The notes under the pieces were generated by a model. It ran no database searches. It worked only from the letters and a program-made list of their open reading frames with translations, and was not told where the DNA came from. DNA of 60,045 bases, counting the filler, from Sphacelaria rigidula (lineage: Eukaryota), in NCBI GenBank assembly GCA_964200075.2. It is 10 parts of 10 records of this genome, joined end to end, with 100 filler letters (N's around TTAATTAATTAA, not from the genome) between each part and the next. Parts side by side here need not be neighbours in the genome. Positions count along the whole stretch, not along the records: positions 42,104 to 48,017 come from CAXNAA020023525.1; 9 more parts are not named here. One strand, given 5' to 3'. Shown piece by piece: positions 5,916-53,820 of this stretch; the first letter of the stretch is position 1, and each line of letters starts with the position of its first letter. Made by a program: the position numbers and the translations under genes.

Positions 5916-6015
5916 NNNNNNNNNNNNNNNNNNNNNNNNNNNNNNNNNNNNNNNNNNNNTTAATTAATTAANNNNNNNNNNNNNNNNNNNNNNNNNNNNN
6001 NNNNNNNNNNNNNNN
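5916..6015. other. Artificial fragment-joining spacer
   Basis: N44-TTAATTAATTAA-N44 (stop codons in all frames). Confidence 0.99.
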
Positions 6016-7262: not shown

Positions 7263-7470
7263 GTGTGTGTTGTGTGTTGTCGTCCTTTTTATTCTGGACG
7301 CCGGTCTACTGCACCTTTCGGTGTATGTGGGCGGTCACACAGGAGGAAGGTCAACACAGGATTTTCCCTTCTTTTTTGTTTGTTTCTAGTACCCCACCTT
7401 TCTTCTGCGGTGCTCGCCTCTTCTTTTTTTATCGCGAGAGGGGTCCAGCAGCTCCTTTCCCTCGTCGACC
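7263..7470 (-). mobile_element. tRNA-derived SINE family A, 5'-truncated copy
   Basis: Body blocks ATTCTGGACGCC, GTCACACAGGAGGAAGG, TTCTGCGGTGC and TTTCCCTCGTCGACC plus a (CA)-type tail match the full copies. No tRNA head. Confidence 0.9.
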
Positions 7471-7496
7471 AGGTATGATAGTTGTCATCTGAAATG

Positions 7497-20551: not shown

Positions 20552-20891
20552 GTGTGTGTGTGTATGTAGTCAGCCCATCTATTCTGGACGCCAGTCCACA
20601 CTTTTCCGATATATGTGGACGCATCAACCCCAGGGTTTTTATTATTTTGTTTTATTACTCCAACTTCCTTATGCGGTGCTTGCCTCTCTTTTTTTTCGCG
20701 AGAAGGGGTCGGCGGTCCCTCTCCCTCGTCGGTCGTGAAGTCGAATTTCGTATACCCTCGACATGGTTGATCTCCACTGTTGGGCATGATGTGAAAGAAT
20801 ACCAGATCGTGTGACTTCACCGAGATTTACGCCCACAATCCAACGGTCAGAAAGTTTCGAGGTTAGCAAGTGAGCCACCGGGGTGACCGGC
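20552..20891 (-). mobile_element. tRNA-derived SINE family A, near full length
   Basis: Minus-strand head GCCGGTCACCCCGGTGGCTCACTTGC with degenerate A/B boxes, shared body and (CA)n tail. Confidence 0.9.
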
Positions 20892-22594
20892 TGAACCGGG
20901 GCACCTACTTTTTCGCATACCGACAGTGAGCACAAGATACACACAGGTTCTTGTGGTGCCTACACAATACTACTGCTATCTGCACTTCATAGGGTTGGGG
21001 ACTGGCGCTACGCGCCAGTACCAGGTAAACTGGCTGCGGAGAGCAGCCAGTTTACTGGGTCCTATCAGGACATTGCTGTCGCAGTGCAGCCGCGACCACG
21101 GCCCCCCCACTCTGGGTATACTAACAACTATTTGAAGAAGAAACGTTTTCACACCCGGGCAGGCATCATCGAAGTGGCCCAAAATCACCTAAAAAATGTC
21201 TTCTAGTGCGCGTAAAATCACCTAAAAAATAGGTGTTAGTATACCCAGAGGAAAACGTCAACAATCGTGATTCGCTGGAGGCTGCGGCGGGTTCAGGGAT
21301 CTAAGGCCCCGGGCTCGGGTCTGAAGCGGGCGGGCTGCTGCTGCCAGTGACATATTCGTCCATCGATTTTGTGGTCTCCCTCTAGTGTGTGTGTGTCCTG
21401 TTCTCGACCTCTATCCTCTCCTGCCTCTCATGCGGCGCAGTTTCGGTGGGTTTTTATGTGATTAAGGAGGCATGATACAGGACGTACGTAAGATGGGTAT
21501 GTATTGGCTGTACTGGCAGCCTCTGACGCAGTACAGAAATACTGTCAGTAGATACCGGTCCAGTTCCCAACCCTAGCACTTCACCCCACATGAGTATTAC
21601 TTCGCGGAGCTGGTACTTTAGCTGGAGAAATCAGCATACATGCCAGCGTGGTATAGATCCCGACCATTACAGCAAGTACTGGTGTGACACGGTGATGCGT
21701 ACGACATACAGACGAGAATGTCACAGGAGACTCGATCACACATATGAGGTGATATTGGATATCCATATATTTGTTATGTGTTTTCCCCCCTTTTGTTTTG
21801 GGTCGGCCGTTTCTTTCTGTGCCTTGCTTGTGTTGACTTTCTTATTACTCTTTTCTTTGTTACGAATTAGTCTGCTATGTCGTTGTGTTCGACGTTTTTT
21901 TTCCCCCCGTTCCTTCTTTTCTTCAGAGCGTGTTTGAGTTTTGTTTTTGTTGGATACGTCTATCATGACACTACGGCTGAACCCCTGGGGGTCACTTAAA
22001 GTGCGACAATCAATCAATAACATAATTCGAATTTCACTTGGCAAATTTGGTTTCTGCTCCGGGTAAAAGAATCGACCAACCGGTTTTCGCGACTCGCTTT
22101 TTGCTACATTTTTCGTTTTTTGGGGGAAAACTGTGTCAAACAGAAACCAAACGCATCTTGCTCCGAGGCTCACCTGAACACAGCAGTTGCTGCTGCCCAC
22201 CTAGTATCATCCTCCAAATCGAGGTCTTGAGTGAGAACGCCCAGCGTGCAGCTGCTTGACGCGACCACTCCGTTCTGCTACGAACCCTTTCCCACGTACC
22301 CGACAACGGTGCCGTACAGACAGTAGCAATTCTAGCGGATCCTACGTCCTGACAGTCTGGCAGTCAGTAAAGTGGTTATGATGATGTCCTTCCAGTGGTA
22401 TCAACTCACAGTGCACTGGAGCAGAGTTTGCAGGTGAAAATTTCGGCGTTTGCCTCACCTGCAGTTCGCCCAGATGTTGCGGATTTTTTCACGATCTCAC
22501 TGAGTAACATTACAAACACGTGAAAATTAAACAGACCGTGGACAACGAATTCTACAGTCGTACGGACACGATGTTGAAAGTGCACTGCGCACAA

Positions 22595-22804
22595 TGTGGT
22601 GTGTGTGTTATCGTCCCATCTATTCTGGAACGGTCTACACCTGTCGGTGTATGTGGACGCACTAGCTAGGGTCACGCAGGAGGAGGGCCAACACAGGAGT
22701 TTTTCTTCCTTGCTTATTTTAGTTCCCCACCTCCCTTCTGCGGTGCTTGCCTTTTCTTTTTTATCGCGAGGGGGGTTCAGTAGTCCCTTTCCCTCGTCGA
22801 CCGT
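22595..22804 (-). mobile_element. SINE family A, 5'-truncated copy
   Basis: CGTCCCATCTATTCTGGA..CAGGAGGAGGG..CCACCTCCCTTCTGCGGTGCTTGCC..CCCTTTCCCTCGTCGACCG. Confidence 0.9.
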
Positions 22805-23435
22805 TGGGTCAATTTGTTTTGCACAGTACAAAATGTGTTGCCGACTGTAATTTGTATTACTCGTACTTGAAGTCGGTAACTGCAACGCTACACTTCGAGA
22901 CAACAGTGTGTAAAAATCTCCACGGTGTGGAATGTTACAGGTGGCTTTCGCGCCATAGCGGCCGTGTTGCCATACAGCTTCGCCCAGGATACAGGCAGCC
23001 ATTACAGCGGCGGAGGTGGCCTTTCACTCCTGCGTGCGCCAAATGGGACAAACGCACGCTGTAGCTGCAACACGGACAGCTTTACAAAATGTGGCGTAGT
23101 GACATAGCGCCTAGCGAGGGGTGATATCCCGTGTACACATTGGCCGCAGGTACAAGCGGCTGCGGTCATGATGTGGCAAACTGCATATGACAGTGGTAAA
23201 TCAATGCAGGACAGGGGTAGGCTAACGATGTGACACCCTGCGGTGTATTTGACCACCCTGCACCCCGCCACTGTCCAGTGAGCAGGTAGTACCGCCAAAG
23301 GCGTCACGCTCCGGTTGGTACGCAGTGTACGCGGTGTCGAACACAGCAGCAAGCAGCATATTTTGTGTACATGGATGTGTGTTCTAAGACCGATGCACAC
23401 ACACAGCAAGCACTATCGCCATCATCCATCGATCA

Positions 23436-42103: not shown

Positions 42104-42147
42104 GGAAAGCACTGTTTTAGGCTTGAGCCTCATCTCGAAGTTAAACC

Positions 42148-44988
42148 TCAATTCGCACAATTTGTTGTTACAGGGTTCTCTGAGTCAACCCCGTCCCTCG
42201 TTTCCGGTGGATACAACGTGCTGACCTCCTCCAACGCCAATGCCATCACATCCGCGGATTCCTTCGGGTACTCAGCCTCCAACTCCTTCAGTAACATCCT
42301 GTCCAGTTTGGGTCCTTGCGGTCCTCCTCCTCCGCCGGGTCCAGCTTCGGTATCATCGTCAGGGAATGACACATCAATGTCACTTCCCCGGGGTTGGCTC
42401 CCTTGCAGCCGAGACAGGGCGTCCGGCAACTGGTGTTCGCATCCAGCTCTCCACTTGAGGACCATATCATACTCCATCAATCTTAGCGCCCGCCGGTGGA
42501 ACTTAGGTGACAAGTTCTGACTACGAAACAGCCATGTCAACGCACTGCAATCCGCATCCAGCGTAAACTCTCGCCCCCATAGGTACGATTTGAATCGTTC
42601 CACGAACCAGAAAACAGCGACTACTCCTCTCTCTGATGCTGATCTTTCTTCATCTGCCCGCGACTATCTACGACTAGCGTATTCGATGACCCATTCCCTC
42701 TCATCCGCCTCCTGGGACAGGGCGGGCGCTGCTGCGAACTCGGAAGCGTCTGAGCGTAGCACGAACCGTTCATTCCAATCCGGGTACGCCAAGATTGGAT
42801 ATAACATCAGAGCGCTCTTCAAGTGTAGGAATGCTTGTTGCTGCTGTTCTTCCCACGGGATCTTCATCCTCCGCGCTCGCTTGGAAGCGAACCGCGGGTC
42901 ACGCAGCAAGTCCGTGAGCGGTCCTGCCGTGTTACTGTACCCTTTTATGTACCTCCGCAGATATCCAGCCAAACCTAGGAACGACCTTAGCTCTTCTACC
43001 CTCTGCGGCTCCCTCAACTGAGCGATAGCTTCAATCTTAGACTGGGAAGGTCGTATTCCCGACGCGTCGATCGTCATTTCTACGAAGTCCTGTTGCTGAG
43101 TGCACTATTGTGATTTCTGGAAATTCACAGTGAGGCCAGCCTTCAGCAAGCAATAGAGCATAACTCTCAACCACGTTATGTAGCTGGCGAAAGTCGCACT
43201 AGGCCACAAGATATCATCCAACCAGTTATTGACACCCCGCGCCGGCAACAACGCTTCAGATACTGTTCGGTGAAATGTCGCGGGTAGTACCTTGAGTCCG
43301 AATCCACAACGTTGATATTGCCATAAGTGCCCCCTCGCATCGCGAAAGGCGGTAAGGTGTCGGTCTTCTTTCTCAACTTCCAACTGCAAAAACCCACTCG
43401 CTAAATCCACACTCGTAAAGTACTTGGATCCCGCTAGGTCACTATATATGGTCTGCATATCCCCCAAACCAACACTATACGACTCGAGAAGTTCGTTTAG
43501 TCCACGATAATCCTGACACAACCATAAACTACCGCCCTTCTTCCGCACCGTGACGCAAGCAGCTGCCCATGCGGACGTCGACGGCTCAGTAATCCCCCGC
43601 TCCGCGAGTTTCTGAACCTCGTCTTGTATAGCAGTTTCTTGTTCCGGCGAGTATCGTCGAGAGTCAGCAGCGAATGGCCGGCACCGGGGATCTTTCAGTC
43701 GTAGATGCAATGGCTCCTCACGCACTGCTTTCACCCGCTTGGGGTCCACCGCGAACAGACCTGCTTCGTTGAAGTATCTTAACACGGATACCAGCTGGGT
43801 CTTCTGCACCGGACCCAACTGGCCCATGTTCGCCTCCGTGAGACCTACTCCTGTGGCTCCAGTTGTGTCCTTCTCCACTTTCGTCGGTTCCGGCGGCGGT
43901 TGGGGAGGGGCTGGCGTAGTCCCTCGATCCTCCAGCCTCAACTTCAGCGTAGTTCCCGTGTAGGACACATGAAGATTTGCAACCGCTCGCGATCTCGAAC
44001 ATTCACGGCCACAACCTTCGCCACTACCATACCTTTCTTCACTAGGCGAGTACTCTTGGCCGTGTTGACTACTTTACATACTGACGGCAACTGTGGGTCC
44101 CACCACTGCACTCCCCTGGCTACCCCTATCTCGGCTTCCTCATCTGAATCGAACAACTTTCGAGGTTCAATCAACACGACTTGACGTTCCTGCGGTTGAA
44201 GACCTCGCACAAAGCCTGGGACTAGCTCGCTAACGAAGCCTTTTAACCTTGCGTCCTCTGTCAGCCGCGGAAGCCACTGAAGTGTAGCGTCGTCCTCCCA
44301 CGCCGCTCCAAGGCTCTTCCACACCTCATCCCATGCTGCTAGATCGCTCTCTTCCGACAACACCCCCGTCGAGTCGTCACTGAGCGCTTTTGGCTTGATA
44401 GCACAGAAGAGATTCGACCTTGCCGAATCATCTTGGCCGGTGAGGTGGTCGGTGTCAACAGCTCCGAGTTTTGGTGAACCGTTAGACACGAATCTTACCC
44501 ACGGAGCCTCCGGCGAAGGTCGAAATCCTGATGGACCTTCAAAAGACAGTGTACTCTTGTTCCTTCTAAAGAAACCTGCCCCCAAAATAAATCCGTACGG
44601 CAATCCATCGACTACCCTGATCCATACTTTCCTTATTCTATCCTTCGGGGTGGAACCGAATCGGGATTACCGTTGACCCTAGAATCTTCATCGGTGGCGT
44701 CCGGCTGTCCCTAGGGTTTGCTGCCCTCAGAAATCCTGCTCCCTGTCGCTACAGCTTGCCTGGTATATTACCCCAAGTCACCAACGACTTCCACCACTGC
44801 TTCGATGCATAGCTACCCCCCCCCGCCCCGGTGTCCAATAACACCGTTACTGGTAAACCGTAGCTACATTTACTGTGGTGCCAAACTCTAGCTTGCACCC
44901 ACACTTGCTGTGCATCGCTACCCTTTACTGCTGATAAACTATCCACGTACACGCTGCCCCCCGGGGACTGCGGCCCCAGGGCGCACAT
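42148..44988 (-). pseudogene. pol: Gypsy pol (aspartic protease, reverse transcriptase, RNase H), disrupted
   Basis: PR: VLLDTGAG. RT: PSTSAWAA..VRKKGGSLWLCQDYRGLN, FTSVDLASGFLQL, TAF, GFGLK, WLDD. Connection: LRSFLGLAGYLRRYIKGYS. RNase H: FVLRSDAS..VIEYASR, YLWGREFTLDADCSALTWL..PDALSRL. Confidence 0.93.
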
Positions 44989-45149
44989 TCATTCCCCGCT
45001 TGTGGCATCGAAACGGTTGCTCAGTGCATCAACCGTCTCGACTCCCTCCTCTTCGTCGCCGTTTTCTGGTTTGTTTAGCCCGTGGTTGAACCCCCGACCT
45101 TCGTTCTGGCTGTCAATTAACCCGAACAACTCCCCCAGCTGTAGGCTCA

Positions 45150-46946
45150 TCAGCCTGTCCCTCTTCGTCTTGGGCTTTGCTTGTGTCTGGTCCGGTTACT
45201 TGTAATGACCGAAGGGAATTCGATCTTGATCATGGGAGTAATTGCAGCCGCACTCTGAGTCCTTGCTGGTGCAGTCTCGTCCATATGCATGGTTGAAACA
45301 CACCCCCAGCAAACGTATGGCGACGTCGCGCTCCCCCTTGGGCGCATTGCGGGCAGGGAGGAACCCGGTCGCCGGTGCTTCTCCTCGCGTGTCAAACTTG
45401 ACACGCTTGGTGGGCTTAGCTGATTCTTCCCTCGGGCGCTTCCGTGCTCCACGAGTATATGAGGATGTCCCGAAAGGAATGCCGCCTCGTGGTGTTGATG
45501 CGTTGTGGTTACTGAAGGCAGCAACGGAGTCGAAGTCTTGTTCTTAGGTATCTTCCTCTGCTTCTTGCATGAGTCGCTTCTTACCCTCTACCAACCCCGC
45601 GTATATGGGCTTGTGTGCGGGGCGTGTTGGTGCTTCAGTAGCGCTATTCATCGCCTCCGTAGACGTTCTAGAACACTCACAGTGGCGTTGGATGGCAGAC
45701 ACGAACTCACTATATATGCGGTATGTTTCCCGCATTCGTTTCTTCATGTCGGGGCTGCACGGGTCTCCATGGTGAACGGGTAAGGAGCGGACGTCGTTCT
45801 CTAAGGCCTTGTTGGGAACTTGTAGTAGTGTACTCGATACTATCTGTGCAGTCGCGTCCGGGATTACCAACTTATGAAAAGTGCTACTCATCTGTAAGAC
45901 CAAAACTTCCGACGCTGTCCTCCAGAAGTATTCCTCCTCTGCAAGGTGTGGAGAGGCTGAAGAACCGTGGCCGCTATAGTTAACAATATCAGACGATGGT
46001 TTTTCCTCCAACTTGTCATCTCCGTATACGTCGCGGAAATAGGCAGCATTACACGCATCAAAAGGTCCCTGCGTCTATCTGTGTACTGATCCGCTTGTGG
46101 TTTCAGCAGCTTACTGGTCATGTGTGCATCAGTAGGCACCCTCCAATTCTCCCCTTCATACGCCGCGAGTGTGGTACGAAAATGGTTCGCGAACAAGACC
46201 GCGGAGTTATGATAGGTCAGTTCTGCATTGTGATCTACAGACCGTCCCTTGTGAACGATGGTATCGGTGTCCTTGGAACCGAGAAGCTTGACCAAAGTGT
46301 TTGCTTGACGGGACATCGCTGGCTGGTGTTTCAGTACAGTCGACCAGTTGTAATCAGACGGGTATGGTGCGGGAACACGAGGGTACGTGGCTCCAAACGG
46401 AGTCAGCCCATCCAGCCTGGATTGGGCTGCCGGGGTCACACCAGAGGGATTGAGAGATCCGTAGAACGGACTGCAGTAGAGACTAACCGGGTCTGGCGCG
46501 ACCGTAAACCTCGAGCGGCGCTGCGGGGGCAACGGCGGTGAAGGTGGCAGCTGGGAATGAGTGAAGTTTCCAGCGGTCGGGGCTTGATGAGCCCCCTGAG
46601 GCACAGAGACTGGCATTGCCGGCTGAAGAGGTGGAGGAACAGACGGCGGGACATTCTGAGGCATCGGGCCAAAGTGCCCTTGCCGTTGCTGTTGCTGAAC
46701 CTGCTGATGAGGATGTGCGGCCACCTGTTGCTACGGAAGCGATCCAACAGCCTCTTTCTGAGGGGGTACGGCACCCTGCTGTTGCTGAACAGGTCCAACA
46801 ACCTGTTGCTGAGGGGGTGCGACAGTCTCTTGTTGCTGAACAGGGACGAAAGGTTGCTGCTGCTGGGGGGCTTGCACTGGAGGCTGTTGACTCGACCCGG
46901 ATGGGTAGAAGGATTGGGCTTGCGGGTTCAAGGGGTTTCCGCTCAT
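45150..46946 (-). pseudogene. gag: Gypsy gag, Q/P-rich N-terminus, disrupted
   Basis: ATG at 46946. A TAG at 46731-46733 lies within a Gln-rich tract and the same frame continues. Zinc knuckle CWGCVSTMH..RDC at 45271-45311 is broken by a 1-nt frameshift. Confidence 0.75.
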
Positions 46947-48017
46947 CGTTTTGCCGATTTTCGAGTTGGCTATTCGGTACTTGAAACAACAACCTGCACA
47001 CATATGCCACATGGGTATAGTAACATCAGTCAAACGTACTTCATAATATCACCACAGTACCTCACCGTCTCGTGGGCGCGTTGGGCAGAATGGGGTGGGA
47101 AACGTCCTTAACTCATCAATGGCGAAAAGACACAATGGGATAGAACAGACAGCCTCAATTTTTCCATCATGGTACAAGAGTGGAAAGCAGGAAGGGAAGG
47201 TGAACAAGGGGGAACCGGAAAGCAAGCATGACAGGAAATTTGATCGCGCAGGAGGGGTTCATGTGAGCAGTCGGCTCGGATTTCCCTAAATAGGGAATAA
47301 TCAAGGATGTTCTCCCAGGCCTCGGCCTCCTGTCAACCTGGAAGAGCATGCGGGGGAAAATATGGCTCCCATAAACCTGTTCGAACGAGCACGGTCTTAC
47401 TATCTTGGGCCTCCGTCCTCCTTCATTTCCTGTATGTAGTGATTTCCTGCCTGATTGTGGGTGAGCCTATTGTATAGTATAACGCACGCATACTACGAAA
47501 TCACACGAATTTCCCAATTCATTCACACGTTGTCTGGCTTACATGCTAGCAAAGTGCATAATGCCCTCAATTATTACTCCCGTTGTTCAGCCCAGCCAGC
47601 CACTCTGTCGATTTCTCTTCGATATATATTTCGGCAAAAGAATGCGTGGAGCCCGTAGACCTTCAAGACCAGAAGCCCTGTCCAGAAGAACCCGATGGTG
47701 GTCAAAACATGCCCGATTAGACGATCAACTCTTGTAGTTGGTCACCAGCGCGTGCAGAGTAGACGAACAACGGGAGTCGGGGGGGTAACGTCCGTCGGGT
47801 AGCCCTGTGCAGGTCTCTTGGCTTGCAACACTCTCAGTAATTGCCCAATCGCGGCAGTGTTGAGGTGATCATCGCAGCCATGGGTGGAAAACTTAGAGGA
47901 TCCATGACTGATGGACTGATAATCCACCGCCCCGGGAATCGTTGAATCAATATTGCGGAAGAGAAAAAAATACTATGGTCAGTGTGTTTCAGCGATGGGT
48001 ATCTGCCCTGAGCAGTG

Positions 48018-50893: not shown

Positions 50894-51294
50894 TGTTGTG
50901 TGTGTGTGTTGCCGTCCCATCTCCTCTGGATGCCAGTCTACACCTTTCAGTATATGTGGGCGCATCAGTCGGGGTTACACAGGAGGAGGGCCAAGACAGG
51001 AGTCATTTCCTATTTTTTTTTCACTTTTTTGTTTGTTTCTAGTACTCCACCTCCCTTCTGCGGTGTTTACCCTTTTTTTTTTAATTGCGAGAGGATTTCA
51101 GCAGGTCGTTTCCCTCGTCGACCGTGAAGTCATTTTTTTTTTTGTGTGTGTACCCGCGATACAGTCGGTCTTCACTACTGGGCATGGTGTCAGAAAAATA
51201 TCCTAGATCGTGTGACTTCACCGAGATTCGAACCCAGGACCCAACCAACCGCCAGAGGGATTCGAGGTTACCAACTGAGCCACCGGGGCGACCG
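50894..51294 (-). mobile_element. SINE family A, full length
   Basis: Minus-strand head CGGTCGCCCCGGTGGCTCAGTTGGTAAC (A box) and GGGTTCGAATCTC (B box), (CA)n tail. Confidence 0.92.
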
Positions 51295-53454: not shown

Positions 53455-53820
53455 TGTGTGCGTGTGTTGTGTTGTCGCCCCATCTATTCTGGACGCCGGT
53501 CTACACCTTTCGGGATGTTCGGGCGCACCAGCCGGGGTCACACACGAGGAAGGTCAACAGATTATTTGTTTTTTGTTTCGTTTCTAGTATCACACCTTCC
53601 TTCTGCGGTGCTTGCCTTTGATTGTGTTTTGCGCGAGAGGGATTCAGTTGTCCCTTTCCCTCGTCGACCGTTAAGTCGAATGCTGTGTGCCCAAGACATG
53701 GTCGCTCTCCACTGTCGGAAACGGTGTGAGAAAAAATATCACATCGCTCCGAGATTCGAACCCACGACCCAACCGTCAGAAGGTTTCGAGGCTACCAACT
53801 GAGCCACCTGGGCGACCGGC
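53455..53820 (-). mobile_element. SINE family A, full length
   Basis: Minus-strand head GCCGGTCGCCCAGGTGGCTCAGTTGGTAGC..GTGGGTTCGAATCTCGG with intact A and B boxes. Confidence 0.92.

Follow-up and report, generated by a model that had tools for sequence, protein, structure and literature searches.

A conserved PAM2-like peptide at the amino terminus of Gag in a Ty3/gypsy lineage of the brown alga Sphacelaria rigidula

The Gag protein of a Ty3/gypsy retrotransposon lineage in the genome of the brown alga Sphacelaria rigidula begins with a PAM2-type peptide, the kind of short motif with which cellular proteins bind poly(A)-binding protein (PABP) at its MLLE domain. Comparison of genomic copies indicates that the peptide is kept under purifying selection, and the structural rules for PAM2 ligands predict that it would bind the MLLE domain of the host cytoplasmic PABP; we regard these two propositions, taken together, as probable. 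This is a known motif in a setting that apparently has not been described yet, and as a selected feature it is well supported by the sequence comparisons. No description of PAM2 in a retrotransposon protein was found in a full-text literature search that was judged by titles and abstract openings and that lay mostly outside subscription journals.

The DNA analysed (the window, 60,045 nucleotides) is composed of unrelated contigs of ~5.9 kb each, joined by N44-TTAATTAATTAA-N44 linkers at positions 5916-6015 and then about every 6015 bases. Because the contigs are unrelated, sequences on the two sides of a linker are not genomic neighbours, and the genomic context of the Gag finding is positions 42104-48017 only (contig C23525, CAXNAA020023525.1, from a 244-Mb assembly). 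Elsewhere in the window a SINE- or MITE-like repeat is present in five dispersed copies that are 64-90% alike (7263-7488, 20553-20889, 22594-22820, 50895-51294 and 53458-53818).

The motif is encoded by the minus strand at 46931-46902 and reads LNPQAQSFYP, residues 6-15 counted from the ATG at 46946 (start codon 46944-46946; 30 of 31 copies have ATG and one has GTG). In the structure-based definition of PAM2, position 3 is hydrophobic (usually Leu), position 4 is Asn or Ser, 5 is Pro or Val, 7 is Ala, 10 is Phe and 12 is Pro; Ala 7 and Phe 10 are invariant and Pro 12 is usual (PMC2854688). In the corresponding 12-residue register of Gag (N4-P15; 46902-46937, minus strand), positions 3, 4, 5, 7, 10 and 12 are occupied by Leu, Asn, Pro, Ala, Phe and Pro, in that order. 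The likeness to PAM2 that an earlier note on this DNA had pointed out is therefore borne out: all six defining positions are matched in the right spacing. The Pfam PAM2 profile (PF07145) assigns 20.1 bits to the 71-residue ORF of the window copy, for a cut-off of 20. Scores are borderline across the family as well, ranging from 15.4 to 21.7 bits in seven other natural copies; two of these reach the cut-off and the full-length ORFs (15.4-18.1 bits) fall below it. A PDB sequence search with the 32-residue amino terminus returned one chance match only. Glu at position 9 of PAM2 is preferred and makes water-mediated contacts, and it is absent from the refined consensus (PMC2854688). The earlier note had reported that this Glu is replaced by Ser, which is correct for the window copy and not for the family, in which 29 of 31 copies carry Pro there and two carry Ser, the preferred Glu being absent.

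The Gln/Pro-rich tract that the same note placed after the motif is real. Residues 16-125 contain 49% Gln+Pro and four charged residues (with the stop read as X), and the whole low-complexity tract (46497-46901, minus strand; residues 16-150, 46% Gln+Pro) is built of short repeats in variable number, its length differing between copies. This composition suggests that the sequence around the motif is disordered. The end of the tract is marked by a polyproline run followed by a basic RRSR motif (46553-46506, minus strand), found in all subfamilies and in P0018, which is a possible ligand of a proline-binding domain. An in-frame TAG at 46733-46731 that had escaped the earlier note ends the window ORF after 71 amino acids; the window copy is a dead copy.

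The minus strand of C23525 carries a leader of ~1.07 kb, gag, a protease motif, reverse transcriptase (RT) and RNase H; stops or frameshifts occur in all of these. Behind the disordered tract lies a capsid-like helical Gag core (45586-46367), frameshifted in the window copy. Near the Gag carboxyl terminus a CCCH-type zinc-finger pattern (C-x8-C-x7/8-C-x3-H; 45232-45300) stands where a CCHC knuckle would be; zf-CCCH Pfam matches in relatives are weak and below cut-off (best E 0.0014). The pol segment comprises the aspartic protease active-site motif LLDTG (44827-44841), recognized from the sequence and without a Pfam match, and broken RT (43108-43515; RVT_1, E 3.6e-11) and RNase H (42469-42855; RT_RNaseH Pfam matches) domains, all on the minus strand. 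A high-copy repeat (depth spike at 42104-42301) truncates the element at ~42170, ahead of the integrase, and similarity to copy L086 stops at the same position, 42170. L086, which is 91-93% identical, has an integrase zinc finger and core after RNase H, giving the order protease-RT-RNase H-integrase that is the Ty3/gypsy domain order. A terminal repeat was not found in the three copies checked for LTRs, in which contigs are short and copies truncated. In the RNase H-integrase interval of L086 (1739-2389, minus strand) there is a weak match to a methyl-CpG-binding domain (E 0.0074, below cut-off), which may be due to chance or to an extra pol domain. We also observed a non-autonomous, internally deleted derivative of the family (L100-L124, L027-L029) in which the gag start is retained together with the motif, for the most part in the form LNPRAQPFYP; a stop follows soon after the motif and the sequence then jumps towards the protease region.

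The Gag core has no Pfam match, Retrotrans_gag clusters standing at 0.86-0.88 in Atlas. The corresponding core of the natural copy L024 was modelled with a pLDDT of 92, and VIA-align places MLV, Copia, PNMA2, MOAP1 and Ty1 capsid chains among its top 23 rows (Z 5.8-6.8), unrelated helical bundles in the same listing reaching Z values equal to those of the capsid chains. Foldseek gave no match at E<=0.001 with the core. In word-based homologue searches, none of 8000 candidates passed E<=0.001 with the core as query, and the linker region yielded 1 of 181 candidates; in metagenome contigs, 128 pattern matches led to no confirmed homologue. The protein is identified as Gag from its position and from a fold that is suggestive, with no significant Foldseek match, and the naming of a Gypsy Gag in the earlier note is supported by these two features together with the Ty3/gypsy order of pol domains.

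For the study of conservation, the best 30 of 42 DNA matches (29 of them distinct) were combined with five copies from DNA and core searches, making 34; L018, L028 and L078, which have indels in or beside the motif, were dropped and 31 copies were analysed. Copies found by the PAM2 pattern or profile were left out of this evidence because their selection is circular. Far from being absent or unconserved in the family, the contact positions are kept in 29-31 of the 31 copies (L6 in 30, N7 in 30 with Ser in one, P8 in 31, A10 in 30, F13 in 29 and P15 in 29). Variants of codons 6-15 that are common to at least three of the 31 copies are all synonymous; variants that replace a residue are seen in one or two copies each, as is expected from decay after insertion. 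The strongest test of selection is given by one divergent copy, L071, from a subfamily that is ~57% identical in the Gag core and for which a few partial matches were the only further copies listed. Its motif is identical to that of L011 in 10 of 10 residues, with eight synonymous and no replacement differences, and differs from that of L024 by seven synonymous and no replacement changes. In the tract that follows, L011 and L071 share ~40% identity; pN is ~0.40 there and 0 in the motif, which is thus conserved far above its flank. The chance of the L011-L071 identity is ~6e-6 if the motif evolves neutrally and 0.004 at the 57% identity of the core.

In the comparison with L071 the third codon positions of the motif are saturated while its residues are unchanged, and selection on the motif is, judged by this pattern, at the level of the protein and not of the RNA. 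This bears on the explanation that the motif is a chance match in low-complexity sequence, or that it reflects conservation of DNA or RNA. A genome-wide scan does test many ORFs and the Pfam score is borderline, yet composition-matched shuffles produce L[NS][PVT]xAxxFxP in only 1.2e-4 of 180-residue amino termini and in 1e-5 within the first 15 residues. A back-translated PAM2-type pattern has 52 matches in the genome, against one for a reversed control, though most of them are copies of this same Gag family. Together with the saturated third positions these figures largely refute such an explanation, which we consider highly improbable. Nor does the true start of the protein appear to lie downstream of the motif. 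The ATG is, by sequence comparison, the only start common to all subfamilies, the frame upstream of it differs from subfamily to subfamily, and in one of them it is closed by a stop eight codons upstream. Residues 1-5 and the non-contact positions are also well kept; because residues 1-5 are conserved, the amino terminus as such may account for some of the constraint. Expression was looked for in contigs of two presumed-RNA runs, whose coverage of the element is patchy and gives no evidence of transcription.

Beyond this family, PAM2 is lineage-restricted and dispensable across the wider Gag clade. It is found in frame in none of 40 distant Gag loci of the genome (26-36% core identity; 40 of 43 matches examined), whose amino termini are Arg/Ser-rich or Pro/Gln-rich in other ways. 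Two sister Gag families (L032, L039, L052-L070) have Arg/Ser-rich, SR-protein-like amino termini in place of the PAM2 motif and Gln/Pro tract. A Gag relative comes from Cladosiphon. Database searches yielded 101 relatives, mostly fragments. Three of these, the first, second and fifth best distant matches, belong to one clade and carry LSPxAxPYVP in the amino-terminal region (LSPFAPPYVP, LSPSAIPYVP and LSPYAAPYVP), with a shuffle probability of 2e-4 to 5e-4 each when the pattern is loosened to admit Tyr. The Pfam PAM2 profile has no match in the three, and we found no literature showing binding with Tyr at PAM2 position 10. PAM2 is absent from 14 other Gag relatives that have amino-terminal regions. 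A quick tree of 40 rows shows the two PAM2-bearing Gag clades as separate and deep, with weak basal support; the second clade perhaps carries a variant of PAM2 in which Tyr occupies position 10.

The motif is not confined to Gag, as it also occurs in LINEs of the same genome. Scanning the genome with the Pfam PAM2 profile gave 89 matches, and 31 of the 40 non-Gag ones that were fetched lie just upstream of an RTE-type endonuclease/RT; we assign these elements to RTE from their single endonuclease-RT (EN-RT) ORF and from known features of the group. Their motifs include textbook ones, either single (for example LNPDAAEFFP) or in tandem (LNPAASEFYP followed by LNPAAAAFYP), and in L168 (5172-6098) a single open frame spans motif, basic stretch and endonuclease. 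Circularity was avoided through a search with the endonuclease alone, which gave 150 matches; 28 of the best 30 have enough upstream DNA, and in 15 of these 28 (one being the query locus) a strict PAM2 lies upstream of the endonuclease, at a distance of 312-407 nt, six more having a damaged one. Twenty weaker matches picked by hand comprise four copies of a third family with a Trp-form motif (similar to LNAKAPVWTP), 12 of a fourth family without a motif, three of the tandem family and one that is unclear. Trp at position 10 is known from the PAM2w variant (PMC7356810). In all, the RTE loci (within L125-L220; for example L168, L131 and L204) fall into single, tandem, Trp-variant and motif-less families, so that in three of the four the EN-RT ORF, read from sequence, likewise opens with PAM2.

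These LINEs also matter for the suggestion that the Gag peptide only resembles a PABP ligand and is kept for another reason, such as an amino-terminal processing or degradation signal, a different partner, or the MLLE domain of a UBR5-like ligase. Conservation of residues 1-5 and of the non-contact positions would agree with this, as would the missing Glu 9 and the occurrence of MLLE in UBR5/HYD. The peptide fits none of the late-domain motifs PTAP, PPxY and YPxL; it does match all six defining PAM2 positions in the right spacing, and in the LINEs the motif has its textbook form, Glu included. We therefore judge a function of this other kind improbable, and binding of the selected peptide to the MLLE domain of PABP remains the reading that we prefer.

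On the host side, a PABP gene is present on contig C725, which ends before the MLLE exons; one of its exons encodes a segment with an 85-92% match to Ascophyllum and Scytosiphon proteins. Neither PF00658 nor an 82-residue query located the MLLE exons in the assembly, both searches being without a positive control. Brown-algal PABPs keep an MLLE domain with the KITGMLLE signature (P0115 scores 100 bits against the human MLLE). A probable host gene (L115:1041-2135, contig C16358) with an apparent intron codes for a small acidic protein that starts MFSLNPQATPFTP and has an amino-terminal PAM2 (17.7 bits with the Pfam profile, Pro at position 9); we take it to be Paip2/ERD15-like. As this probable host PAM2 gene also has Pro 9, Pro at that position in the Gag family appears to be native usage in the host.

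The gag-pol junction provides a second conserved feature. In 9 of the 10 family copies that cover the junction, gag ends with an in-frame TGA (44989-44991, minus strand, in the window copy), a candidate readthrough codon that is followed by a conserved G+C-rich stretch; an ATG directly after the TGA is seen in the window copy only. Distant families found by the protease motif have the same TGA at the junction. Retrieval with a junction pattern gave 23 copies from five families, 21 of them with TGA, and in most of the 23 a hairpin of 8-9 bp is predicted 7-8 nt downstream, its stem sequence differing between families. In the window this G+C-rich stem-loop, a candidate stimulator of readthrough, is at 44960-44981 (minus strand), and by itself it is not unusually stable (z -1.18). 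The arrangement suggests UGA readthrough at the gag-pol junction of brown-algal Gypsy elements. PAM2 as a requirement for readthrough is ruled out, families without PAM2 having the same TGA and stem-loop.

The junction nevertheless invites the alternative that Gag binds MLLE for translational control, either tuning UGA readthrough by competition with eRF3 or protecting the poly(A) tail by competition with deadenylase adaptors of the PAN3/TOB type. Besides the conserved TGA and its 3' stem-loop, such a role would agree with the stimulation of termination by PABP through the eRF3 PAM2-MLLE contact (PMC13517186) and with the competition of PAM2 ligands for one site (PMC7356810). In the sister families that lack PAM2, however, readthrough would be independent of the motif, and the effect of PABP is expected to be small where a long coding sequence follows the stop (PMC13517186). 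RTE LINEs, moreover, consist of a single ORF without such a junction. We consider translational control unlikely as the reason why the motif is kept.

We propose instead that MLLE binding would serve the capture of the element's own RNA. By analogy with known systems, the peptide, which is the first part of the protein to leave the ribosome, would tether Gag, while still nascent, to the PABP that sits on the poly(A) tail of the very mRNA under translation. Such tethering would favour capture of the element's own RNA and could nucleate a Gag-RNA granule for particle assembly, PABP keeping the adjoining Gln/Pro-rich tract soluble. The same tag at the front of the EN-RT protein of RTE LINEs would fit a shared, cis-preferential mode of RNA capture. 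A co-translational role common to both kinds of element is favoured over element-specific ones because the motif is amino-terminal in both Gag and the LINE proteins. The whole chain, from a selected PAM2 through PABP docking and own-RNA capture to the seeding of granules, has in our judgement about an even chance of being correct. A precedent for part of it is the model in which the PIE peptide of LINE-1 ORF2p contacts PABPC1 to give cis-preference (PMC7617806). Two further analogies are the condensation switch formed by PAM2 in ataxin-2 (10.1101/2021.08.23.457426) and the prion-like domain of Ty1 Gag (PMC10466094). In yeast lacking the ataxin-2 homologue Pbp1, Ty3 transposition is unchanged, which argues against a general need for PAM2 proteins (PMC4589538).

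MLLE binding could also do no more than steer or solubilise Gag in condensates resembling stress granules, the RNA of the element itself not being preferred. The position of the motif next to a long Gln/Pro tract would suit such a role, and PAM2 acts as a condensation switch in ataxin-2, whose loss of PAM2 leads to spontaneous condensation and to loss of mixing with stress granules in plants and protists (10.1101/2021.08.23.457426). Against it, the RTE motif precedes a basic stretch and the endonuclease, with no Gln/Pro tract, and many Gln/Pro-rich Gag relatives do without the motif; a purely condensate-related function seems rather unlikely to us, and we retain own-RNA capture as the favoured reading.

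The Gag motif shares with the PAM2 ligands of Paip1/2, eRF3, ataxin-2, TOB and PAN3 the hydrophobic residue at position 3, N4, P5, A7, F10 and P12 and a location in a disordered region (PMC2854688). Ataxin-2 further resembles Gag in pairing PAM2 with Gln-rich disordered tracts. Unlike these cellular ligands, the Gag motif is known from sequence, belongs to the capsid precursor of a retrotransposon, begins at residue 4 and carries Pro, not Glu, at position 9. The LINE-1 PIE is likewise an amino-proximal retrotransposon peptide that engages PABP and is proposed to set cis-preference during translation, but it is predicted to bind RRM1 and not MLLE, is unrelated in sequence and belongs to a non-LTR EN-RT protein and not to Gag (PMC7617806). 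Ty1 Gag has a low-complexity amino-terminal region, a prion-like domain, before the capsid domain (PMC10466094), and Ty1 and Ty3 assemble in cytoplasmic RNP granules, the retrosomes; they differ in that the portions of PMC10466094 and PMC4589538 dealing with them mention no PAM2 and no defined PABP docking motif. Ectocarpus, from the same algal class, has Gypsy (Metaviridae) and RTE families of the same superfamilies, with PR-RT-RH-IN order and four Gypsy lineages, and the main text of the article on its transposable elements contains no occurrence of PAM2 or PABP (PMC12477816).

By what means a retrotransposon protein selects its own mRNA has long been an open question, and one structural proposal for it invokes another surface of PABP, the RRM1 bound by the LINE-1 PIE. 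With a short motif whose receptor is known and which a known single-residue change knocks out, the question would become open to direct testing in an LTR element as well as in RTE LINEs. More broadly, and only tentatively, the two kinds of element may be cases of convergent and recurrent PAM2 mimicry, by LTR elements in Gag (in one or perhaps two clades) and by RTE elements in the EN-RT protein (in single, tandem and Trp forms), each capturing its own poly(A) RNA during translation through PABP. Cis-preference and selective RNA packaging would then have a portable and mutable basis, and in the Gypsy element the motif may also feed back on UGA readthrough by displacement of eRF3. PAM2 could also serve to mark ORF starts in the annotation of transposable elements. 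If the proposal is true, PAM2, besides serving cellular regulators, would also be used by selfish elements, in competition with eRF3 and deadenylases for one site on PABP.
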